Below, one piece after another: positions 2,448 to 56,385 of a stretch of DNA of 64,000 nt. Within the stretch, counting starts at the first letter, position 1. Each line of letters opens with the position of its first letter. The stretch covers positions 7,666 through 71,665 of the forward strand of contig CAMCAW010000004.1 of NCBI GenBank assembly GCA_945872855.1, in the 5' to 3' direction. This DNA comes from Rickettsia typhi. Its GTDB lineage: Bacteria; Pseudomonadota; Alphaproteobacteria; Rickettsiales; UBA1997. Below the pieces are notes generated by a model. It saw only the letters and a list, made by a program, of their open reading frames with translations. It was not told where the DNA came from and ran no database searches. A program made the translations under genes and the position numbers.

Positions 2448-3734
2448 CTACTTTGCAAGCTGCGAAGGTTGCTGAAGCTGCGTAACACTTACGTTCATAA
2501 CCCTTCTGAATTCCACCTTGCTATTCGGCTTGGCGTTAACATCAAAACTATTAGCCTCCGTCTCAGAATTACGGCCCCAAGCGGCTTCAAGATTATTCAT
2601 CATGGCATATTCCCCCGTTTTTACCGCAACCTTCGTAACCTTTTCTTCTTGCAATAAAAGCGCCACAACATGATCAATTTTCTCTAAAATTAGATTATAT
2701 TTATTATAAGCCTCATATCCTAAATCCTTCGAAATAAACGCAGAATCCTCCAATCTCAAGCACCATTTTCCTGCCACCTTCTCTAAAATCGCAAATTCGT
2801 TGGCCTTATTTTCATCGCCATAAAGCCTCTCTGGATGATAAAACTTTTTCTGCATCAAAAGTTTTATTTCATCTTCATCGAGAAAATGCACAATTTGCGC
2901 AGCATCAACCATATAAGTAACTACAGAGCCATCAGCATTAATACCGATCAAAGCAGTTGCACTCACACGATTTTTATCAATATTAGGACGACTATGAATT
3001 GTTTGAGAATTAGTTGTGCGAAAGCAAGAAATTGCAGTTGGATAATTTGATTTAGAAATTAAATTGCACATAGCATAGGTAAGAGAAATGCTTGGAGCCT
3101 GCTGCAGCGCATTCGCATAAGGATTATCCCCCGGGGCAAATTCAGCGAAAGAAGTCTTTTGATCCTCAACCCTAACCTTAAACCTCATCACTTCTCGCAA
3201 TGCCGATTCGCCAAGCCCAGTAATGGTAAACGGCGGAATGCCGTCCGATATATAAGACTGCGTAACATTGCCCAGAGCAGCATCTTTGATTAACTGCGCC
3301 ATCGCAATAGCATTTTGGTCACCCTCCCTTGATAAACTCGCCAATTCTTTACGCAACGATTCTGCATTTTTTACTATTTCAGACTGATCAAATAAAGATG
3401 GCAAACCGCCCTTTAAAATTGCTATTGAAGTATTCTCAATAAATAATTTTTTAACCGATGGTGCAATTTCTGCAATATATCTAAATTTCGATATAGGCAT
3501 TGTTTCGACCCGCGATAGCGCCTCTCCCTGCACCTCCGCCTTCAATTGCGCCAGACCTTCTTTCGTCTGACCCAATAACCAAGGAGTGTGAGCAGCCCCT
3601 CTAACCGAACCCCTAGGTGAAAAAGGCGGCGCAGCTTGCCAAGAATGCACCGCACTCATAGGGCTTTTACCAGAACCAAAAAGCATTGTTGTAGCTTGGC
3701 GCAAAGCAGGATTTTGCAAGAACTGTCTCGACAT
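2448..3734 (-). CDS. Hypothetical protein, orphan paralog A (428 aa from MSRQFLQNP...)
   Basis: Long uninterrupted ORF with no family I recognise. It shares collinear motifs and its length with the ORF at 4504-5793. Start is set at the ATG at 3734 (MSR...), matching the paralog. Confidence 0.6.
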   Translation of the reverse strand: MSRQFLQNPALRQATTMLFGSGKSPMSAVHSWQAAPPFSPRGSVRGAAHTPWLLGQTKEGLAQLKAEVQGEALSRVETMPISKFRYIAEIAPSVKKLFIENTSIAILKGGLPSLFDQSEIVKNAESLRKELASLSREGDQNAIAMAQLIKDAALGNVTQSYISDGIPPFTITGLGESALREVMRFKVRVEDQKTSFAEFAPGDNPYANALQQAPSISLTYAMCNLISKSNYPTAISCFRTTNSQTIHSRPNIDKNRVSATALIGINADGSVVTYMVDAAQIVHFLDEDEIKLLMQKKFYHPERLYGDENKANEFAILEKVAGKWCLRLEDSAFISKDLGYEAYNKYNLILEKIDHVVALLLQEEKVTKVAVKTGEYAMMNNLEAAWGRNSETEANSFDVNAKPNSKVEFRRVMNVSVTQLQQPSQLAK

Positions 3735-3932
3735 ATTTTGAATTTTAAATTTAATAAACCGCTCGCGAGGCAAGCGCAGCAAAAGTCTGTGGGAAAGGCG
3801 AAACTAAAGATGACCCTCTATTTGTCAATCCATTAAAGTTATTTTTAAACTCATCATAAAAACCATCTTGCATTTTAAACACACCAACCTAAAATCCCGC
3901 CCCTATTTTTAATTTAGATGTAACTCACTTAT

Positions 3933-4135: not shown

Positions 4136-4507
4136 GTGAAAATCCTCAGAATAAAAAAATCCACTGAATTTCAAACTATCGGCAAGAAAGGTAAAAAGTT
4201 CCACGCCAAAACCCTTCTCCTAATCAGCTCTCCAACCTCAGAATTTTACCTACAAGATAAACTTAAAGGCAAAAATGCTGCCAATTTTGCACGCGTTGGC
4301 TTCACCGTAAGCAAAACCGTTGGCAATGCAGTTATAAGAAATCGCGCCAAAAGAAGATTGCGCGAGGCTGTGCAGGCCCTAATTCCGGAGCATGGTAAAA
4401 ACCATCAAGACTATGTGATAATCGCCCGCCGCGAGATTAAAACCGCAGATTATAAAAACATTTTGGCTGATTTGCGCTTTTGCTTGCGCGGAATTTTGAA
4501 GATTTAA
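4136..4507 (+). CDS. rnpA: Ribonuclease P protein component
   Basis: Small basic 123-aa protein immediately after rpmH. The motif GFTVSKTVGNAVIRNRAKRRLRE matches the RnpA RNR motif. GTG start. Confidence 0.85.
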   Translation: MKILRIKKSTEFQTIGKKGKKFHAKTLLLISSPTSEFYLQDKLKGKNAANFARVGFTVSKTVGNAVIRNRAKRRLREAVQALIPEHGKNHQDYVIIARREIKTADYKNILADLRFCLRGILKI

Positions 4508-5793
4508 CGCAGCTTATTCGCATCACTCAAACTGTTGCCCACGCCAGAAACTTCTATTGCAGACACGCTATTCATTGGCACTGATTTATCATCTTGAAAT
4601 TGCAGCTTCTGATTCGAGAACCCTATCCTAATAATTTCGCGAGGCTGCGCGCCATTAGGCAAAACAAGATCTGCAGAAGAATCGACTTTCTTTCTGAACA
4701 ATTTAGTTGGATCGCTACTATAGCTTGGCGTTCCGCCCTCTCCAAGCGCAGGCATTGCCTCGGTGCGAAAATGCATAACGTTTCCCAATTCTTCATCGTA
4801 ATTTCTCATGATGGTTTTTGTGTTATCATTTAAAACCACAATTGGCACCATGTTATTGTGAAGCAACAAAGCCGACACTTTGGTGATTCTTTCAAATAAT
4901 TCTTGCACATTAAAATTATCGGGGTTTTTGACCGCCTCAATCCTCTTCTCAAGTGAACCATCGTAATTTAGCGCCTTTTTCGCAATAATCGCAAATGGCT
5001 CAGATAATGCATCTACCCCTCTTTCAATATCTCTAGAAGTTGTTACAAAATTTACTCCTCTTAAAAATTCAATCTCTTGATCGGAAAAATATTTTAAAAT
5101 TTCAGAAGCTGGAATCGCTCCCGTAGCAACATTTGGATATGGATTATCTGCGATTCCTGCAAAAAATATAATATTTATTCTGACATCGTCGCCATCTTTT
5201 GAAGTAGCGGGACTAGGGTTAAAATCTACGTGAGGAAGCTGTGAATTCAAACTTGATATGCGATCAAATTGCGTAATGTTCTGTCTCGTTAAAGCAGTCG
5301 CAAATAAAAGATCTGGAAGGCTCCGATTAATGGCCTCTAGCACTTTTTCATCACTACTTTCTTCACCTTCTTTTTCTATATGCTGAACACTTGCACCAAC
5401 CATTCCTACATCTGCAACGGTTGGCGAAAATTTTCCTTCGAATATTATTGATTGATACTCGCCATTTTCAAAATTTTGCAAAGATTCTGCGAGGTCATCA
5501 TGTTGCTCAATTTCTTCTCTAACTTTTGCCACAGCAGAAATAAATTCTGGCGAAGGTATGATGATTTTTCTCGCTATCAAACTGTTAGAAATATCTGATA
5601 TTTTGGCACAAAATTTTGGCGGCAAATCAACAAATTGAACTTGGTTATTATATTTTTGAAGAGTGATAGCCTGTGAAGACGCCCTTCTTAGGCACATTGA
5701 GCCCGCGATAGAAGTGGCAACGGAGCCTCCTCTTTCCATTGCAAATGGCATAGAAGCAATTCTTCTGGCAGCAGAAAAAAGAGGGCGACTCAT
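4504..5793 (-). CDS. Hypothetical protein, orphan paralog B (429 aa)
   Basis: Long ORF with no TM segment or signal peptide, starting MSR... It begins 8 nt downstream of the pntAB stop. It has collinear motif matches to the 2448-3734 product (DNPY.N, F.D.EIE/K.L, FAI., V.ALLL). Confidence 0.6.
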   Translation of the reverse strand: MSRPLFSAARRIASMPFAMERGGSVATSIAGSMCLRRASSQAITLQKYNNQVQFVDLPPKFCAKISDISNSLIARKIIIPSPEFISAVAKVREEIEQHDDLAESLQNFENGEYQSIIFEGKFSPTVADVGMVGASVQHIEKEGEESSDEKVLEAINRSLPDLLFATALTRQNITQFDRISSLNSQLPHVDFNPSPATSKDGDDVRINIIFFAGIADNPYPNVATGAIPASEILKYFSDQEIEFLRGVNFVTTSRDIERGVDALSEPFAIIAKKALNYDGSLEKRIEAVKNPDNFNVQELFERITKVSALLLHNNMVPIVVLNDNTKTIMRNYDEELGNVMHFRTEAMPALGEGGTPSYSSDPTKLFRKKVDSSADLVLPNGAQPREIIRIGFSNQKLQFQDDKSVPMNSVSAIEVSGVGNSLSDANKLR

Positions 5794-28170: not shown

Positions 28171-29877
28171 ATGGCCGCAACCTCAACTAACACCGACATT
28201 AGCGCCAGACTTTTAGAGAAAAAAGTCATTTCTGAAGATCAGCTAACCATTGCTCTAAAAGAACAAGCGCGCCTAAAAAACTCTAAAACCGTTTCGGCAA
28301 TTTTGGTTGAAATGGGCTTTATTTCAGAAAGCGTTTTGGGAGAAATTCTCAACGAATCTACAGGGATAAAAAAGTTCGATATTAGGTCATCAATCATCGA
28401 TGCGCGCTTGGTTAAGAAGGTTTCAAAAGAATTTGCGATTCACAATAAGCTCATTCCCGTTTCATATTCGAAAGACACCGTAACTATTGCGATGGCCGAT
28501 ATTTTCGACATTATCGCCATCGATCAAGTGCGCCGTTGCTTTCCCAACAATTTCCGCATCAATCCTGTTTATGTCCCCGAAGTAGATATTTTGCACGCGA
28601 TCGACCAATATTACGGCTACGAAATGTCGATCGAAGGGATTTTGAAGGAAATTGAAGGCATCGATGTCAATAAAATCAACGATGAATCGCAATTGCGCGG
28701 CGATTATAAAAGCCCGATGGTGCGCTTGGTGGATTCAATTTTCAACGACGCGGTACATAATGGCGCATCAGATATTCACTTTGAGCCCGAGAACATGTTC
28801 TTGCGCATCCGCTACCGCATTGACGGCAAGATGGTGCAAATTCGTTCGCTGCACAAAGATCATTGGTCGGCAATTTCGGTGCGCATAAAAATTATGTCGG
28901 GAATGAATATCGCTGAGAGCCGCAAACCGCAAGATGGCCACATTAATTCTGAGATTCTCGGTCGCAAGATCGACTTCCGCGTCTCTACGCAGCCAACGAT
29001 TAACGGCGAAAATATCGTGCTGCGAATTTTAGATGAAAAACAGTCAATTCTCGCACTCGATAAATTAGGATTCACCGAGCATAGCATTAATTTGGTGCAA
29101 AAAATGGTGCAGCGCCCCGAAGGCGTGATTATCCTCACGGGCCCTACGGGCAGCGGCAAAACGACCACTCTTTATACGCTGTTAAGCTATATCAATTCGG
29201 TGGATAAAAATATTATGACGTTGGAAGATCCGGTCGAATATCATATTCCGATGATCCGCCAATCGAACATCAAAAGTGATTTGGGCCTTGATTTTGCGGC
29301 AGGCGTTAAAGCCTTACTACGTCAAGATCCTGATGTAATTCTTATTGGTGAAATTCGCGATAAAGACACCGCGATCGCCGCCATTCAAGCCGCGATGACG
29401 GGTCACCAAGTCTATACCAGCTTACACACTAACGACGCGCTCGGCGCTATTCCGCGCTTGATGAATATTGGCGTGCCTAATTATCTCATGGCTGGATCGT
29501 TGATTTGCATAGTGGCGCAACGTCTCGCGCGTAAGCTTTGCAATTCGTGCAAAAAAGAACACGAGCTAGATGTTGCAGAGAAGAGGCTTCTCGGCGCTAA
29601 ATATGCTCATGTTGACAAAATTTTTAAAGCTGTGGGTTGCGAGAAGTGCAATCAAACTGGCTACAAAGGGCGCGTTGTGGTGGCCGAAGTTTTGCCTTTC
29701 GATCGCGAGTTAGACGAAATGGTTGCGGCTTCGAAAAGTCGCAAAGAATTGTTGCAATATTTGCTTACGAAAAATTTTGTACCAATGGTCGAAGATGGGC
29801 TGCAGAAGGTTGTGGCAGGCATTACAGACTTAAAAGAGTTGCTTCGCGTTGTCGATTTAACTGATCGCATGAATTAG
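28171..29877 (+). CDS. GspE/PilB-family secretion ATPase (type IV pilus / type II secretion assembly ATPase)
   Basis: N-terminal MshEN/T2SSE_N-like domain, Walker A GPTGSGKTTTLY, Walker B DPDVILIGEIRD, a His box and the tetracysteine motif CNSC...C.KC. No other pilus or T2SS genes are adjacent. Confidence 0.85.
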   Translation: MAATSTNTDISARLLEKKVISEDQLTIALKEQARLKNSKTVSAILVEMGFISESVLGEILNESTGIKKFDIRSSIIDARLVKKVSKEFAIHNKLIPVSYSKDTVTIAMADIFDIIAIDQVRRCFPNNFRINPVYVPEVDILHAIDQYYGYEMSIEGILKEIEGIDVNKINDESQLRGDYKSPMVRLVDSIFNDAVHNGASDIHFEPENMFLRIRYRIDGKMVQIRSLHKDHWSAISVRIKIMSGMNIAESRKPQDGHINSEILGRKIDFRVSTQPTINGENIVLRILDEKQSILALDKLGFTEHSINLVQKMVQRPEGVIILTGPTGSGKTTTLYTLLSYINSVDKNIMTLEDPVEYHIPMIRQSNIKSDLGLDFAAGVKALLRQDPDVILIGEIRDKDTAIAAIQAAMTGHQVYTSLHTNDALGAIPRLMNIGVPNYLMAGSLICIVAQRLARKLCNSCKKEHELDVAEKRLLGAKYAHVDKIFKAVGCEKCNQTGYKGRVVVAEVLPFDRELDEMVAASKSRKELLQYLLTKNFVPMVEDGLQKVVAGITDLKELLRVVDLTDRMN

Positions 29878-33421: not shown

Positions 33422-35626
33422 ATGCCAACAAACCAAAAATCACATTTCGACACAATAATAATCGGCGCTGGACACGCCGGAATCGAAGCCGCCTGCGCCT
33501 CTGCAAGAATGGGCGCCAAAACTTTGCTAGTCACCAAAAGCATAGAAAATCTTGGCGAAATGTCATGCAACCCCGCAATTGGCGGCGTCGCAAAAGGCAC
33601 AATCGTAAGAGAAATTGACGCGCTAGATGGCGTAATGGGCCGCGCCATCGACAAAGCCGGAATTCACTTTCGCATTCTCAATGCCTCCAAGGGCCCCGCC
33701 GTACACTCACCGCGCGCGCAAGCCGATCGGGCACTCTACAAAAAAGCCATCAAACAAATTCTGCGCGAAGAATATTTAGAAGATGAAAGCGCAAAAAAAA
33801 TTAGCGAAGATTCTGCCGTTAAAAACCCTAAAACCCTTGATAATGCTGACTTTGCCAAGAATTATTCTAGTGCCAACTCGCTCCAAAAACTTAATTCGCT
33901 TGATGACAACAACTCTTCTTGCAACAAAAAAAATCTCACAATAATTTTTGCCTCAGTCGAAGATCTTGAAATCAAAGATAGAGCCATATCAGCAGTGCTT
34001 CTAGACAATGGACAACAAATTTCTTGTCACTCATTAGTTCTCACCACTGGCACTTTTTTGAACGGAATAATTCACATCGGCGATCAAAAAACTCCTGCTG
34101 GCAGAATTGGCGAGAAACCGTCTTGCAGCATTTCTGAAAAACTGGCGCAACATAATTTTGCACTGGGAAGGCTTAAAACAGGCACTCCGCCGCGCATTTT
34201 AAAAAGCTCGATAAATTATAGTGCACTCGAAGAACAGGCTGGGGACAAGCCTCCGCAGCCTTTTTCTTACCTCAATGAAAAAGTTGAAGCGCCACAAATT
34301 TCTTGCTTCATCACTTATAGCAACCAAAAAACTCACGAGATTATCGCGCAAAATTTGCAAAAATCCGCAATGTATGGCGGCCACATCGCCTCTAGTGGCC
34401 CGCGCTATTGCCCCTCGATCGAAGATAAAATTCATCGCTTTGCAGATAAAGAGCGCCACCAGATTTTCTTAGAGCCAGAAGGGCTTGAGAGCGATTTAGT
34501 CTATCCAAACGGCATCTCGACTTCGCTGCCCGCCGACGTGCAAATCGAATTCTTAAAAACCATCGCAGGCCTAGAGAATTGCGTGATGACGCAGTGCGGT
34601 TATGCAATTGAATATGATTTTGTTGATCCGCGCGAATTATTGCCCACGCTTGAAACTAAAAAAATCCGCAATTTGTTTTTTGCGGGACAAATTAACGGCA
34701 CCACGGGATATGAAGAAGCCGCAGGACAAGGGCTTGTAGCAGGAATTAACGCGGCACTGAAAAGCACCAAAACAAAACTTGGCGTCAATGAAAGCGCTAA
34801 CAGAAATTTATGTGGCGCTGAAAAAAATAAATTCGGCCAAGAATTTAACGACGAAATCCATGATCGAGAATTTATCCTTGATCGCGCCTCCAGCTATATC
34901 GGCGTGATGATCGACGACCTCACCACCCTCGGCGTCTCCGAGCCCTACCGCATGCTCACCTCGCGCGCCGAATATCGCCTCAACCTGCGCGCCGACAACG
35001 CCGATCTCCGCCTCACCGAGCGCGGCATCGCCATTGGCTGCATTGGCCTCAAGCGCAAAAATTTCTTCCACGATAAAAAAAGCAAACTCGATCACGCCAC
35101 AAATTTGCTAAAAAATCTATCTATTTCGCCAAAAAAACTAGTCAACTTCAACATCGCGATGAAGCAAGACGGCGTAGTGCGCTCAGCTTTTCAACTTTTG
35201 TCTTTTCCAGAAATAAATCCGATTGCAAGAAGCAATAATTCTGAAAGCAAAAATTTAATAACCATTGAAGAATCAGGTGAAGAAGTTGCTGTAAAAAAAG
35301 AATTTACCTTCGAAAAACTAGAAAAAATTTGGCCAGAAGAAATCGCCACAATCGATAGCAACACCAAAAAACAAATTGCCATTGAGGCTCTCTACCAGCC
35401 ATACATAAGGCGCCAAGACCAAGATATAGAAATCCTGCGCCAAGATGAAAATATAAAAATCCCGCTAAATTTAGACTATAACAGCATCCAAAGCCTTTCC
35501 AACGAAGTGCGCGAAAAACTCAACAGAGCCCGCCCAGCCAATGTTGGTGCAGCTTTACGCATTCAAGGAATTACCCCCGCGGCGATGATGGCAGTTATTG
35601 TCTATATTAGAAATATCGAGAAATAG
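33422..35626 (+). CDS. mnmG: tRNA uridine 5-carboxymethylaminomethyl modification enzyme MnmG (GidA), with lineage-specific insertions
   Basis: [59 protein letters not shown] and [18 protein letters not shown] are present. At 734 aa it is about 100 aa longer than the E. coli enzyme. Confidence 0.95.
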
Positions 35627-37211: not shown

Positions 37212-38702
<1,491 letters not shown>

Positions 38703-39084: not shown

Positions 39085-40110
39085 TTAATTTTTCTTTAAG
39101 AATTCTTGCAAAAAAATTGCAAATAATAGTTTTGGAGAGGTTGTTGAGGTGGTTTTGATCTTTATTTCTAATTCTTGTATGGCTTGGAGCCATGTATTTA
39201 GGCGCTCTAGCGTTATTGATTTTAAATTTTTGCGGAATTCTGCTTCAACTTTGAAGAATAGTTTTTGGTTTTTTATAGCAGCCTCGAAGTCAATAACAGC
39301 AACATCTGTGGCGATTTTGGCGTGGTAGAGTTTTTGTAGATAATTTGATAAAAAACGAATTAGCGTGATAGCATCAAAACCATTTTTGAGCAGGTATTGC
39401 GCCTGTTCGTCGGCTATTGCGTAGTTTTTGCTAATGAAATTATTAATGAATTCGTTGGTAGAAATTATGGCTTGAGCATCGATTGCGCGGTCGATTAGAT
39501 CGGGCTCGATGTCGGCGCCGTCTAGGTAGATGGCGATTTTTCTGATTTCGTTAGCGATGATTTGGCGATTTTTTCCGAGCTTGTCGAATAGGTGCTGAAT
39601 GCAATCTGGCTGCGGCTCGATCTCGTTTTTTTGCAGCTCGGCTTCGATGAATTTTTTGATGGCGCGTTCGTCGTCTTCATAGCAGGCGATGGCTGCGAAG
39701 CTGTTATATTCTTCGGCAGCCTTACGTAGTGGCGAGCCTTTATCGAGATCTCCCGCTTGAATTAGAATGAAGTTTTCGCTTTTTACAACTCCATCTTTGT
39801 CGGCGAGTAGCGATTTTAGGGCTGCGGCGGCAGTTGCGTCAGGATCTTTTATAAGAATTAATTTGCGACCGCCAAGCATTGAGAAAGAATAAAATTCATC
39901 GGCGAGACAAGAACTGTCTTGCGCGAAACGGTCTTTACTAAGATTAACCACAAGAAATGGATCGGATAAATTTGGCGTAATTTTTTGCGCGATGGTTTTT
40001 ATGTTGTGCGAGATAACGCTCTCTTCAGGGCCGAAAATCAAGGCTCCAGCGATTTTTGTATTGGCGATATTTTGTATATATTGATCGATTTGGTAAGGAG
40101 GGATTTTCAT
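39085..40110 (-). CDS. holA: DNA polymerase III subunit delta
   Basis: 341 aa. The N-terminal pattern (YQIDQYIQN....AGALIFGPEESVI), length and all-helical C-terminus fit HolA. Start is coupled to the tilS stop (TAATG overlap). Confidence 0.55.
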   Translation of the reverse strand: MKIPPYQIDQYIQNIANTKIAGALIFGPEESVISHNIKTIAQKITPNLSDPFLVVNLSKDRFAQDSSCLADEFYSFSMLGGRKLILIKDPDATAAAALKSLLADKDGVVKSENFILIQAGDLDKGSPLRKAAEEYNSFAAIACYEDDERAIKKFIEAELQKNEIEPQPDCIQHLFDKLGKNRQIIANEIRKIAIYLDGADIEPDLIDRAIDAQAIISTNEFINNFISKNYAIADEQAQYLLKNGFDAITLIRFLSNYLQKLYHAKIATDVAVIDFEAAIKNQKLFFKVEAEFRKNLKSITLERLNTWLQAIQELEIKIKTTSTTSPKLLFAIFLQEFLKKN

Positions 40111-46926: not shown

Positions 46927-47096
46927 ATTATTGCCTTGATTAAATTACAGAGGAATATCTTGCAAGGTTATCTCATCATTTGAGTTTATTTTCTACAACA
47001 AATTTATGATTTTCTTTTTAAAAAACTCTTGCAAGAGGCCAAAAATTATCGTAGCATGACCCCTTCTTTAAATTTTATCATCTTTTTCTCATAAAA

Positions 47097-48164
47097 ATGT
47101 CAGCAAAAAAAGCGAAGTCACTTACGAAAAAAAATAAAGTTGCGAAGTTGGTAAAAAAGCCAGCGGCGCCCACAAAAAAAGCGAAGGCTGTAAAAAAAGT
47201 TGTAAAAAAGCCAGTTAAAAAAGCGGCGGTTAAAGCAATGAAAAAGCCAGTTAAAAAAATAGCTGCAAAAGTTGCAAAAAAGGCGGCGAAGAGTTCTATG
47301 TCTAAGGTGATAAAGAAAAAAATTGTAGCCAAAAAACCAGTAATCGCGGCAAAAAAAGCTGCAGCAAAAGCTCCGAAAGAAAAAGTTACTAAACAACCGG
47401 TTGTTAAAGTTGAAAAACCTAAGGTGGTTGAAAAAAAAATCGTTGAAATGGTTGTGCCAAAAATTGTGAATAAAAACGCCAAAGCCTCAGAATTCAAGAT
47501 TGGCGAATATGCGGTATATCCTTCGCATGGCATCGGAAAAATTATCGATATTCAAAAAACCACCGTACTTGGTTCTGATTTTAGCTGCTATTTAATGAAT
47601 TTTGAGAAAGAAAAACTCACTATTAAAGTTCCAATTATCAATTCTGAGAAAATTGGCTTGAGACCTTTGGTTTCTAAGTCACAAATGGAAGAAGTTTTTT
47701 CTATTTTACGCAGCGGTATTAAAAAATTGAAAGGAATGTGGAGCCGTCGCGCCCAAGAATATGAATCTAAAATTAACTCGGGAAATATTATTTTATTGGC
47801 CGAAGTTTTACGCGATTTAACTCGCGATATTGAAGATGGTGAAAGATCTTACTCTGAGCGAATCATCTACGAAACCGCGGTTTCACGGCTTGCGGCAGAA
47901 TATTCTGCAATCTATAAAGTTGATTTTGAAGAAGCGAAGGGCAAAGTTGTCGTTACTGCAAAAGATAAACTTGGATCTGATGATAAAGTAGAAAAACTAA
48001 AGCGTGACGACGATTTTGATGACGATGACGATGACAAAGAAGAATCTTCTGACGAAATTGAAGACGAAGAAATAGACGATGACGAAGAAGGAGATTCTTA
48101 CGATGACGAAGAAGATGATGACGACGATGATGATGACAAGCCTCGCAAGAAACGCAAAAAATAA
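47097..48164 (+). CDS. CarD/CdnL-family transcriptional regulator fused to an N-terminal Lys/Ala-rich histone-H1-like region and a C-terminal poly-acidic tail
   Basis: Residues 1-130 are K/A/V/P repeats (KKPVKKAAVKAMKKPVKKIAAKVAKKAAK...). Residues about 132-290 form a CarD_CdnL_TRCF-like domain (FKIGEYAVYPSHGIGKIIDIQ...). Residues 294-347 are D/E-rich, and the protein ends in KPRKKRKK. Confidence 0.8.
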   Translation: MSAKKAKSLTKKNKVAKLVKKPAAPTKKAKAVKKVVKKPVKKAAVKAMKKPVKKIAAKVAKKAAKSSMSKVIKKKIVAKKPVIAAKKAAAKAPKEKVTKQPVVKVEKPKVVEKKIVEMVVPKIVNKNAKASEFKIGEYAVYPSHGIGKIIDIQKTTVLGSDFSCYLMNFEKEKLTIKVPIINSEKIGLRPLVSKSQMEEVFSILRSGIKKLKGMWSRRAQEYESKINSGNIILLAEVLRDLTRDIEDGERSYSERIIYETAVSRLAAEYSAIYKVDFEEAKGKVVVTAKDKLGSDDKVEKLKRDDDFDDDDDDKEESSDEIEDEEIDDDEEGDSYDDEEDDDDDDDDKPRKKRKK

Positions 48165-48169
48165 CTCAC

Positions 48170-48844
48170 ATGAGTCAATGCGCCCTTGAACTGATTAATA
48201 TCACGAAAAAATTTACACAAGGTGGGCAAGATATTTTTGCACTAAACAATATTAATCTTTCGATAAAAAAAGGTGAAATTGCAGCGCTTGTTGGCCCTTC
48301 TGGCTCTGGCAAAACCACCTTGCTGCAAATTTCTGGATTATTAGATTCGCCAGATTCTGGTCAAATTTTCGTTAATTCTCTTGATGCCTCGAAAGCTGGC
48401 GACGCTGTGCGCACTAAGATCCGCCGCGATAATCTTGGCTTTATTTATCAATTTCATCATCTATTGCCAGAATTTTCAGCGCTAGAAAATGTGGCTTTGC
48501 CGCTTTTAATTCAAGGCGTTGCAAAAAATTCTGCGTTGCAAGAAGCGGAGAAAATTTTGGCAGAAGTTGATTTATCGAATCGCTTGCATCACAAGCCAGC
48601 AGAGCTATCTGGCGGCCAGCAACAGCGCGTTGCGATTGCTCGGGCAATTATCACAAAGCCATCGTTAATTTTAGCTGATGAACCGACAGGAAACCTTGAC
48701 TCTGTTAATTCGGAGAAGGTTTTTGAATTGTTGAAAAATTTGGTGCGCAGCTCTGGAATTGCTTGCTTGCTGGTTACGCACAATATTGAACTAGCAAAAA
48801 AACTCGATCGCACAATCATGATATGCGACGGAGAGATTGGCTAA
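48170..48844 (+). CDS. lolD: Lipoprotein-releasing system ATP-binding protein LolD (ABC ATPase)
   Basis: Walker A GPSGSGKTTLL, signature LSGGQQQRVAIARA and Walker B LILADEPTGNLD. The length and the FIYQFHHLLPEFSALENV block are LolD-like. Confidence 0.8.
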   Translation: MSQCALELINITKKFTQGGQDIFALNNINLSIKKGEIAALVGPSGSGKTTLLQISGLLDSPDSGQIFVNSLDASKAGDAVRTKIRRDNLGFIYQFHHLLPEFSALENVALPLLIQGVAKNSALQEAEKILAEVDLSNRLHHKPAELSGGQQQRVAIARAIITKPSLILADEPTGNLDSVNSEKVFELLKNLVRSSGIACLLVTHNIELAKKLDRTIMICDGEIG

Positions 48845-55380: not shown

Positions 55381-56385
55381 ATGGACAAAAAACCAACAGA
55401 ATTAACCTCTTCGCCGCTCAATGCATCAATCACTACACAAGATAGTGCTGCGTGGCGAGAAACAAATCCCATAAATGATGATGAAGCAATTCTTCCACCT
55501 AATCTTTTAGATATCACTCAAGAATCTTCTTTTGCCGAATCTTCTTACGCAAACGATAGTGAACTATTAGACGGCGATAAATTAAGCTACATATTGCAAA
55601 ATTATTATTTAGCACGCGACAATAACAATCTTGAGCTGGAAGAAAATTTATTTGATGAATTAGGAAGCCTAGTAAATAAAATTATAAAAGAAAAAAATAA
55701 CAATTTAATATGTGAAATATTTTATACTCAACCAAATTTATTAAACTTTGTTAATCGCGATAATCTTGATCAAGATTTAAAAATAACAATTGCCGACGCG
55801 ATGGAAAATGAGGGACGCTTTGATAAAGATCATATGTATTGGATTGCGGAAAACTGCATAAAATATGGCATTTTCGATATAGGTGACATACGTGAGATTT
55901 TAATGGAATGGGCTCATGATGGAGATGACGCGAGAAGAGCGATGGCAGATCTAAAAGGAATAAAAAAATTAGAAAAGTGCAATAAGCCATACATTGTAAA
56001 CTCAGGACTCAGAAGCGAAGCCTCTTCATATTGCGTAGAAAACTCGCTAAATGCCAGTACGACAAGTGATTATGACAGATCTAGTCTTTTAAATCAAAGT
56101 ATAGCCTCAAGCATTGATGACCCAGGATACTTTTTAGAGCGCAATATCAATCCAAATTACAACGCTAGCGAAAATCAAATTGTAGCAGAAGAGGGCCATC
56201 TTGAAGAGGAATTAGAAGCGATACTTCCCGATTACATTTCTGGGCCAAGAGCGTCAACCCCAATTCCTAAAAATCAACATCACGAACCAAAAACATCAAG
56301 ACCAAGCAGCATAACATCTCCGACTAGAAATTCTGAGTCTTTTGTAAGTCGCTATAAAAGCGATACTTCTCAATATCTAGACTAA
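55381..56385 (+). CDS. Hypothetical acidic protein (orphan)
   Basis: 334-aa uninterrupted ORF that is visibly more AT-rich than its neighbours. It has no TM segment, signal peptide or recognisable motif. Confidence 0.5.
   Translation: MDKKPTELTSSPLNASITTQDSAAWRETNPINDDEAILPPNLLDITQESSFAESSYANDSELLDGDKLSYILQNYYLARDNNNLELEENLFDELGSLVNKIIKEKNNNLICEIFYTQPNLLNFVNRDNLDQDLKITIADAMENEGRFDKDHMYWIAENCIKYGIFDIGDIREILMEWAHDGDDARRAMADLKGIKKLEKCNKPYIVNSGLRSEASSYCVENSLNASTTSDYDRSSLLNQSIASSIDDPGYFLERNINPNYNASENQIVAEEGHLEEELEAILPDYISGPRASTPIPKNQHHEPKTSRPSSITSPTRNSESFVSRYKSDTSQYLD

Follow-up and report, generated by a model that had tools for sequence, protein, structure and literature searches.

Long-form CdnL proteins with a polycationic N-terminal arm and an acidic, basic-tipped tail in uncultured aquatic Rickettsiales-related bacteria

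A 64,000-nucleotide stretch of contig CAMCAW010000004.1 (GenBank assembly GCA_945872855.1, deposited as Rickettsia typhi), which we refer to as the window, carries a gene, cdnL, for an RNA polymerase (RNAP)-binding protein of the CarD/CdnL type in which a canonical folded core lies between a basic N-terminal arm (N-arm) and an acidic tail that ends in a short basic tip. CarD and CdnL proteins are global and often essential regulators of transcription initiation, and the current view in the field is that a DNA-binding appendage is found only on myxobacterial CarD and not on CdnL-type proteins. We find the long-form layout in dozens of uncultured aquatic species related to Rickettsiales, as a trait of the family and not a one-off. 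On balance, we favor the reading that the window protein serves an uncultured freshwater alphaproteobacterium related to Rickettsiales as its housekeeping CdnL, with a core that would stabilize open complexes, an arm that would tether the protein to DNA, and a tail that would compete with nucleic acid. A preliminary description of this sequence had proposed a CarD/CdnL core between a basic N-terminal region and an acidic tail with a terminal basic cluster, and this arrangement is borne out by Pfam mapping and by composition (Table 1).

The folded core comprises residues 133 to 290 (ending at position 47966) and is of mixed composition, with a net charge of +2. A scan of the protein against NCBIfam finds nothing beyond the two Pfam domains. 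In an AlphaFold2 model built from a 121-sequence family alignment, residues ~131 to 290 have predicted local distance difference test (pLDDT) values that are mostly >90, and they form a beta-sheet RNAP-interacting domain (RID; pLDDT of 93 to 96) followed by a confident helical domain. In a Foldseek comparison, the core matches Mycobacterium tuberculosis CarD in the open promoter complex (6edt_M) with a template modeling (TM) score of 0.87 and a root mean square deviation (RMSD) of 2.1 A, and it superposes on Thermus and Mycobacterium CarD structures, including RNAP open complexes, with TM scores of 0.82 to 0.89 and an RMSD of about 2 A. The closest solved structure by sequence is Myxococcus xanthus CdnL (PDB 2LWJ, 1.7e-22). 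A constant offset of 125 relates the residues to those of Caulobacter CdnL (P54 to P179, W90 to W215, R92 to R217, R93 to R218, Y127 to Y252, and R130 to R255), and all six positions are invariant or nearly so in the family. In the Caulobacter protein, mutation of P54 weakens binding to RNAP beta, and W90, R92, R93, Y127, and R130 are the residues of the basic-hydrophobic patch that were tested (PMC5324124). By every structural criterion, the window protein is a CdnL family member, and by homology, the conserved P179 and the fold suggest binding of the RNAP beta lobe and stabilization of the open complex. Stand-alone CdnL proteins are ~160 to 200 aa long and have no DNA-binding appendage (PMC2919716); at 355 aa, with 132 extra N-terminal and 65 extra C-terminal residues, the window protein does not fit this size range. 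Size is a descriptive rather than a structural criterion, and the most suitable classification is as a variant of CdnL.

Both extensions lack secondary structure in the AlphaFold2 model (pLDDT of 44 to 53 in the N-arm and 49 to 57 in the tail) and are predicted to be disordered. When scanned alone against Pfam and NCBIfam, they give zero matches. Their charge density is exceptional within the window: among its 82 open reading frames (ORFs) of at least 100 aa, cdnL has the highest density of K+R (0.43 per 60 aa) and also of D+E (0.80 per 40 aa), with a runner-up density of 0.35 in each case, and the binomial tail probabilities of the two charge blocks against window composition are 1e-12 (K+R) and 5e-22 (D+E). 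The motifs quoted in the preliminary description are all present, with KKPVKK occurring twice and AAKKAAAKAPK once in the N-arm and KPRKKRKK forming the C-terminal end. Its phrase "nearly pure D/E" is a slight overstatement for the tail, which is strongly acidic (80% D/E in the densest 40-residue window) but reaches 67% overall. The tandem-repeat periods within cdnL are all multiples of 3, and codon repeats are present in both extensions. The same protein is encoded by two independent public assemblies.

Table 1. Coordinates of cdnL, its protein modules, and its predicted promoter in the window
Feature	Position	Strand	Details
Long-form CdnL coding sequence	47097..48164	+	ATG start; 355 aa plus stop
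Polycationic N-arm, predicted disordered, residues 1-132	47097..47492	+	K 36%, A 18%, V 17%, P 7%; net +42; isoelectric point 10.8
Tandem repeat in N-arm, 36 nt (12 codons), 2.4 copies, KKVVKKPVKKAA-type unit	47195..47282	+	Tandem Repeats Finder
CarD_TRCF_RID (PF02559), RNAP interacting, Tudor-like beta sheet, residues 133-191	47493..47669	+	Pfam 46.4 bits vs cut-off 23; 4e-12
CarD_C (PF21095), helical C-terminal domain, residues 199-282	47691..47942	+	Pfam 70 bits vs cut-off 23.1; 2e-19
GMWSRR: Trp215 and Arg217/Arg218 of basic-hydrophobic, DNA-facing patch	47733..47750	+	Invariant in 121 family members
Polyanionic tail, predicted disordered, residues 291-347	47967..48137	+	D 47%, E 19%; net -32
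Aromatic anchors of acidic tail	DDDF 48006..48017; SYDD 48096..48107	+	Conserved motif type in family
Basic tip KPRKKRKK, residues 348-355	48138..48161	+	Net +7
-35 hexamer TTGCAA, predicted sigma-70-type promoter	47029..47034	+	Invariant in window and four orthologous loci
-10 hexamer TAGCAT, predicted	47052..47057	+	16-17 nt past -35; orthologues have TATTAT, TACAAT, or TATAAT

A search with the full-length protein, which is biased toward low-complexity matches, returned 120 clusters of 297 to 440 aa; all of these have a basic N-terminal extension (74 to 223 aa) and an acidic tail (43 to 72 aa), and about 110 of the 120 end in a [KRA]P[KR]n cluster. A word-indexed search with the core alone, which yielded only proteins of 280 aa or fewer, gave a graded series of canonical forms (167 to 185 aa, commonly with an AA end), forms with an acidic tail only (200 to 230 aa), and intermediate forms (240 to 280 aa), and some of the matches are labeled as Rickettsiales, Rickettsiaceae, or Pelagibacterales metagenome-assembled genomes (MAGs). 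Unbiased proportions are based on an exhaustive search with the core alone, without a word index, against 1.84 billion cluster representatives. Among the 147 best cluster representatives, 87 have an N-terminal extension of at least 60 aa, which is K rich in 57, and most of these 57 have no acidic tail; an AA/VA end is present in 71 of the 147, and an acidic tail is present in only about 10.

A genome scan with the full protein was swamped by poly-D patterns, and one with an alignment gave, among the matches listed, mostly canonical Sphingomonadales CdnLs through a generic motif. Species-representative loci were found with a handmade, clade-specific degenerate pattern, which yielded 45 CdnL loci, all of them in uncultured MAGs that are mostly lake derived. 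Based on ORFs read from the DNA, 29 of these 45 loci combine an N-arm of at least 90 aa with a tail of at least 40 aa, and the architecture is retained although the cores of these full-form representatives have diverged to about 73% identity. In composition, charge, and motifs, the extensions are preserved in at least 29 species representatives and in 136 long-form clusters. One of the full-form MAGs is assigned to "Ca. Gamibacteraceae." The window core shares 96% identity with the core of MAG Baikal-deep-G64 and 81% identity with the core of UBA2645, which has been placed in "Ca. Gamibacteraceae," an aquatic Rickettsiales family that has no ATP/ADP translocase and is possibly ectosymbiotic on ciliates (Schön et al.). 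The sequencing runs that hold the locus are freshwater metagenomes.

The architecture is not singular, given that at least 29 species-level MAGs share the layout and that 57 of the 147 best representatives have K-rich arms. The preliminary description had named as a ground for refutation that the extensions are common and already described in this clade. They are common, as these MAGs demonstrate, but we found no published description of the long form in full-text literature searches, which omit most subscription journals. Alphaproteobacterial CarDNter-like proteins of 143 to 456 residues have been listed (Table 1 of García-Moreno et al. 2010, PMC2919716), and the word "extension" is absent from the main text of the 2017 survey of alphaproteobacterial CdnL (PMC5324124). 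The long-form architecture is apparently undescribed.

Two observations on the records themselves can be added. Alphaproteobacterial CdnLs that have an N-arm only carry K/A/P/T-rich arms of 60 to 340 aa, keep the AA/VA end, and have no acidic tail or tip; they are labeled as Parvularculaceae, Amphiplicatus, and several other alphaproteobacterial MAGs (L013, L015, L035, L063, and L082; P0248 to P0388; P0402 to P0518), and they look like a separate, larger, and equally undescribed class. Some MAG records of the clade to which the window belongs bear implausible names (L099, L116, L121, L132, L138, L147, and L153; L102, L105, L109, L115, L117, L136, L140, and L151). The names "Rickettsia typhi" and "uncultured Rhizobium sp." on MAGs of this clade look like automated mislabels, since they match neither the lake-metagenome origin nor the CdnL sequences.

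A [DE][FY][DE] motif is present in 184 of 185 family tails, and the tail consensus begins with KDEFDEFD and has DDDY/F near its end, before the tip. An ending of the form [DE]n-x-P-[KR]5-9 is found in 111 to 112 of 136 long-arm forms versus 1 of 31 acidic-tail forms with a short N terminus, although these counts are not phylogenetically independent, and 27 of the 29 full-form species representatives have a basic tip. KPRKKRKK is identical in L007 to L009, and RPKKRKK is found in L010. The AA/VA ending shows the opposite distribution, being present in 190 of 269 forms with a short C terminus versus 4 of 199 acidic-tail forms. In Caulobacter CdnL, ClpXP-dependent turnover is directed by the AA motif (PMC5324124), and since the acidic tail displaces this ClpXP-type end, turnover control must differ in the tail-bearing forms.

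The nearly complete loss of AA/VA from tail-bearing forms is an argument for a different function of the C-terminal extension, namely, that the tail and tip serve mainly in protein stability or partner docking, for example, as another protease or adaptor signal that has replaced the ClpXP degron. The conserved short aromatic-acidic motifs resemble linear docking motifs, and actinobacterial CarD is controlled by Clp and by the disordered partner CrsL, which are both consistent with such a role. However, ~55 residues with a net charge of -32 far exceed what a degron needs, and we have identified no partner or protease signal. We regard stability or docking as an unlikely main function, and it is in any case compatible with the tethering and competition reading that we favor.

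In a neighbor-joining tree of the core domains, the acidic-tail forms make up one contiguous block in which the forms with arm, tail, and tip are nested, while the N-arm-only forms lie outside this block and are interleaved with canonical forms. The acidic tail is largely confined to one clade. From this grouping, we conclude that the tail arose once or a few times and that the K-rich arm was gained at least twice.

Patchy, repeated gain and loss of the N-arm on the core tree is what would be expected if the extensions were neutral low-complexity growth, that is, products of replication slippage (AAA Lys and GAT/GAC Asp repeats) that are tolerated in an AT-rich, reduced genome. The tandem codon repeats in both extensions and the rapid turnover of N-arm length and sequence, with many indels, fit this explanation as well. 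In addition, K codons are used in the N-arm just as in the genome background, with no avoidance of slippery A-runs; a test of the N-arm for counterselection of such poly-A runs or for a preference for AAG codons was negative. The pattern of substitution is different. In comparisons of the window with four orthologous loci (L007 to L010), which are 55 to 69% identical to it at the nucleotide level in the N-arm region, the ratio of nonsynonymous to synonymous substitution (dN/dS) is 0.2 to 0.58 in the N-arm, 0.03 to 0.09 in the core, and 0.06 to 0.17 in the tail. These values are rough, with synonymous sites near saturation, but they are <1 in both extensions. Motifs are also kept (the MxAKK start, KDEFDEFD, DDDY/F, and the [KRA]P[KR]n end), the architecture is retained in 27 to 29 species representatives with cores down to about 73% identity, no other ORF in the window has comparable charge blocks, and K-rich arms are also found in A/P-rich forms in other alphaproteobacterial lineages. 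Neutral growth therefore seems to us a somewhat poorer explanation still than stability or docking, and improbable as an account of both extensions.

The preliminary description had recognized that its interpretation would fail if the K-rich region were a separate ORF or were not translated, and the reading-frame evidence instead supports translation of the N-arm as part of the protein. In all five loci (the window and its four orthologues), the N-arm frame has 0 stops over 132 to 156 codons, while the other two forward frames have 7 to 14 and 12 to 21 stops (10 and 12 in the window). In plain nucleotide alignments of the N-arm region, 50 of 58 internal gaps are divisible by three. The N terminus is kept among orthologues as MSAKKAK or MPAKKSK. 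The window protein does have an ATG (Met118) directly before the core, but L007, L009, and L010 lack any Met after residue 1 and ahead of the core, so that Met118 is not a conserved alternative start.

The position of the predicted promoter also agrees with initiation at 47097. The invariance of the -35 hexamer in the five loci stands out since the flanking synonymous sites are saturated. The promoter matches just 8 of 12 consensus positions, which is why a generic promoter scan missed it. There is no ATG between the -10 hexamer and 47097, so 47097 would be the first start codon on the predicted transcript, which would have a leader of ~33 nt. A Shine-Dalgarno (SD) motif is absent before 47097, but only 2 of the 44 window ORFs of at least 200 aa have an SD-like 4-mer at -20 to -4. 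This genome appears to initiate translation independently of SD motifs almost everywhere, and the missing motif at 47097 is therefore normal here.

Based on the single open frame, the in-frame indels, the dN/dS values of <1, the kept N terminus, the lack of a conserved internal Met, and the upstream promoter, we conclude that the N-arm belongs to the protein. A separate upstream ORF or an internal start was considered and is rejected by the frame, indel, selection, and Met118 evidence. The alternative that the arm is untranslated, or that the main product starts near residue 118 and is a near-canonical CdnL plus tail, could appeal to the placement of Met118 in the window protein, to the missing SD motif, and to the fact that the locus is found in no RNA runs. 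It conflicts with the absence of Met118 from L007, L009, and L010, with the frame-specific openness, in-frame indels, and purifying selection across the arm, and with a conserved promoter upstream of 47097 in a genome in which SD motifs are hardly used. The one apparent "short" relative is no support for it either: P0121, a close relative called as a 225-aa CdnL, has a run of Ns that breaks the K-rich repeat and an upstream piece that begins MPAKKNKK, where a 74-aa antisense shadow ORF was called in place of the arm, and we reject it as a genuine short form because it is an assembly-gap artifact. We consider an untranslated arm or a start near residue 118 very improbable.

Other features of this region deserve mention. 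A block of ~65 nt directly upstream of the -35 hexamer (46966 to 47028) is nearly identical in 4 of the 5 orthologous loci despite saturated flanking synonymous sites. It holds T- and A-tracts adjoining the -35 hexamer, and it matches no Rfam family and shows no sign of a conserved RNA structure. This block may be an UP-element, a regulator site, or part of a divergent promoter region for the M23 peptidase gene. F-rich shadow ORFs lie antisense to the N-arm; one of 74 aa is called in L006 (2348 to 2726), and one of 151 aa is open in the window (47078 to 47533, minus strand). In practical terms, gene callers and assemblers often truncate genes of this kind or call antisense shadow ORFs in them.

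The remaining alternative, that KPRKKRKK is a true eukaryotic nuclear localization signal (NLS) and/or a positively charged type IV secretion signal of a nucleomodulin secreted into a protist host, is the least credible of all: although the tip fits the monopartite K-K/R-x-K/R pattern (as KKRK) and a clade member belongs to a family of possible ciliate ectosymbionts, the pattern is nonspecific and any K/R cluster satisfies it, the core is that of a strongly constrained housekeeping RNAP factor (see dN/dS above) in conserved housekeeping synteny, none of the 32 window proteins that have Pfam information (20 that were scanned plus the called genes around the cdnL locus) is a type IV secretion or host-interaction protein, and the tip tracks the bacterial N-arm (112 of 136 long-N versus 1 of 31 short-N forms), which argues for a shared intracellular role in polyanion binding. 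The preliminary description had suspected that the NLS-like terminus might be coincidental; its conservation in 111 of 136 long forms speaks against coincidence, while a role in nuclear localization is unsupported.

What the analysis shows is the layout of the protein together with its translation, disorder, conservation, and distribution, while every binding activity in the model that we favor is an inference. By homology with other CdnL and CarD proteins, the RID of the core would sit on the RNAP beta lobe and the Trp215/Arg217/Arg218 patch would lie at the upstream edge of the bubble, where it would stabilize open complexes at sigma-70 promoters. The N-arm, with 132 residues and a net charge of +42, would bind DNA nonspecifically by electrostatic attraction and would thereby tether CdnL and its bound polymerase to the nucleoid or to upstream promoter DNA, as the HMGA-like or H1-like domain does for Myxococcus CarD. 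The tail hangs from the DNA-facing C-terminal domain and may be a tethered polyanion in competition with nucleic acid for positively charged surfaces (on the arm, the patch, or RNAP), and such competition would keep binding dynamic and salt sensitive, as the acidic tail of the Bacillus RNAP delta subunit does. The basic tip may fold back on the tail, like the lysine tract (K-tract) of delta, or may make a second DNA contact.

Several results weigh against this model. The N-arm evolves rapidly, and its length varies between 74 and 223 aa. Some proteins have an N-arm but no tail and others a tail but no N-arm, so the two are not an obligate pair. Within the long forms, there is no covariation between arm charge and tail charge (r = 0.07). 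No RNA runs that hold the locus were found, and neither the whole protein (E values of up to 1) nor the N-arm alone (E values of up to 10) matches an H1, Hc1, or Hc2 family. The independence of the modules, together with the lack of charge covariation, argues against a tail that serves purely to neutralize the arm, and simple stoichiometric neutralization of the arm as the sole role of the tail was dropped on the basis of the same r value.

A bolder version of the tethering and competition model is also conceivable. The protein would be a single-chain charge-block transcription factor that unites three activities otherwise divided among separate proteins, with a core that stabilizes open complexes, an H1/HMGA-like arm as a DNA tether, and a delta-like tail for eviction of nucleic acid, and the oppositely charged arms would also allow molecules to associate head to tail, concentrating RNAP on the nucleoid of small, AT-rich aquatic Rickettsiales. 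We offer this version tentatively and do not expect it to hold in full. If it were true, the textbook split between a DNA-binding myxobacterial CarD and an appendage-free CdnL would break down.

A large share of alphaproteobacterial CdnL clusters has a long polycationic arm, and one aquatic clade adds a polyanionic tail that replaces the ClpXP-type end. Should DNA binding by the arms and competition by the tail prove real, these lineages would have independently rebuilt a CarD-like or delta-like solution, which would bear on the organization of transcription in reduced, AT-rich genomes. The family is also a natural system for the study of charge-block disordered regions on an RNAP factor.

The called genes that flank cdnL belong to housekeeping Pfam families only. 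A gene for an ABC ATPase starts at 48170, and because this is 5 nt past the cdnL stop, the arrangement suggests that the two genes form an operon. The only secretion-related gene among the 32 window proteins with Pfam information is a PilB/GspE-type secretion ATPase with an MshEN domain (28171 to 29877, plus strand), which may belong to a type IV pilus or a type II secretion system. The G+C content of the window is 40.5%. A full-length 16S rRNA gene is present at 37213 to 38701 (minus strand), but the 64-kb window has neither a 23S nor a 5S gene and no spacer tRNAs beside the 16S gene, which means that the rRNA genes are unlinked. Unlinked 16S and 23S genes are common in Rickettsiales, in keeping with the placement above. 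Among the 16S genes retrieved, the best full-length identity to the window 16S is 82%, and the lineage is poorly represented by them. An exact-word search with the V4 region of the 16S gene was discarded as a means of placement since it matched unrelated classes and is not diagnostic. The GIDA profile aligns to a homologue of MnmG/GidA (33422 to 35626, plus strand; 734 aa) as two separate segments, suggesting that this protein has an insertion that the family model lacks. Five long ORFs of 334 to 507 aa have no Pfam match at E values of up to 1e-5 (2448 to 3782, 4504 to 5793, and 39085 to 40110 on the minus strand and 12837 to 14360 and 55381 to 56385 on the plus strand); that at 12837 to 14360 is overlapped by a 303-aa ORF on the opposite strand.

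Compared with CdnL of M. xanthus and Caulobacter and with CarD of Mycobacterium and Thermus, the window protein has the same RID and helical core, the RNAP-contacting Pro, and the Trp/Arg patch. Most alphaproteobacterial CdnLs end in an AA/VA degron (PMC5324124), while the window protein has no AA/VA end and is extended by a basic arm of 132 aa and an acidic/basic tail of 65 aa. The Parvularculaceae and Amphiplicatus CdnLs that have an N-arm only share a K/A/P/T-rich arm on a CdnL core but differ in their position on the core tree.

For the basic arm, the compositional comparisons are the chlamydial proteins Hc1 and Hc2, AlgP of Pseudomonas, and the tails of eukaryotic H1, all of which are K/A/P-rich, repetitive, disordered polycations. 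The precomputed Pfam annotation includes PF07382 (HC2) hits on a few family members (P0018, P0511, P0512, and P0515). The term "histone H1-like," used for the arm in the preliminary description, is apt for composition, but no H1, Hc1, or Hc2 profile matches the window protein.

For the acidic tail and basic tip, the closest working analogue is the delta subunit (RpoE) of Bacillus subtilis RNAP, with a likeness that is functional and compositional only. In delta, a folded N-terminal domain tethers a disordered tail with a net charge of -47, which competes with nucleic acids in the main channel (PMC7749165), and a K-tract within this tail makes functionally important contacts with its acidic part (PMC9674986). 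The differences are considerable: the folded domains are unrelated, the K-tract of delta opens its tail instead of closing it, a basic arm is missing from delta, and delta is found in Firmicutes. A delta-type folded domain is absent from the window protein, in which the CarD/CdnL core is the only folded region.

The comparison with Myxococcus CarD that was made in the preliminary description is apt as an analogy, including its point that the basic region is at the opposite end. In myxobacterial CarD, a CdnL-like RNAP-binding module is fused to disordered charged regions, with an acidic and then a basic region after the core, an order that the window protein shares; the basic part is an HMGA-like domain in M. 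xanthus and an H1-like domain in Anaeromyxobacter. The basic disordered domain of CarD binds DNA, and function is retained when other disordered domains of basic character take its place (PMC4374960; PMC2919716). In contrast, the bulk of the basic region of the window protein is N-terminal, and the C-terminal basic part comprises just 8 residues. M. xanthus CarD has an acidic segment and four RGRP AT-hooks, while the window protein has no RGRP motif, and the core of the window protein is nearer to CdnL than to CarDNt. Myxobacterial CarD works with a partner, CarG, and is limited to the Cystobacterineae, while the relatives of the window protein are alphaproteobacterial MAGs. The window protein belongs to none of these families (myxobacterial CarD, H1/Hc, and delta) and resembles them only in a possible mode of action. 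Because the core tree places the extensions inside the alphaproteobacterial CdnL radiation, we conclude that they arose within that radiation and are convergent with those of myxobacterial CarD.

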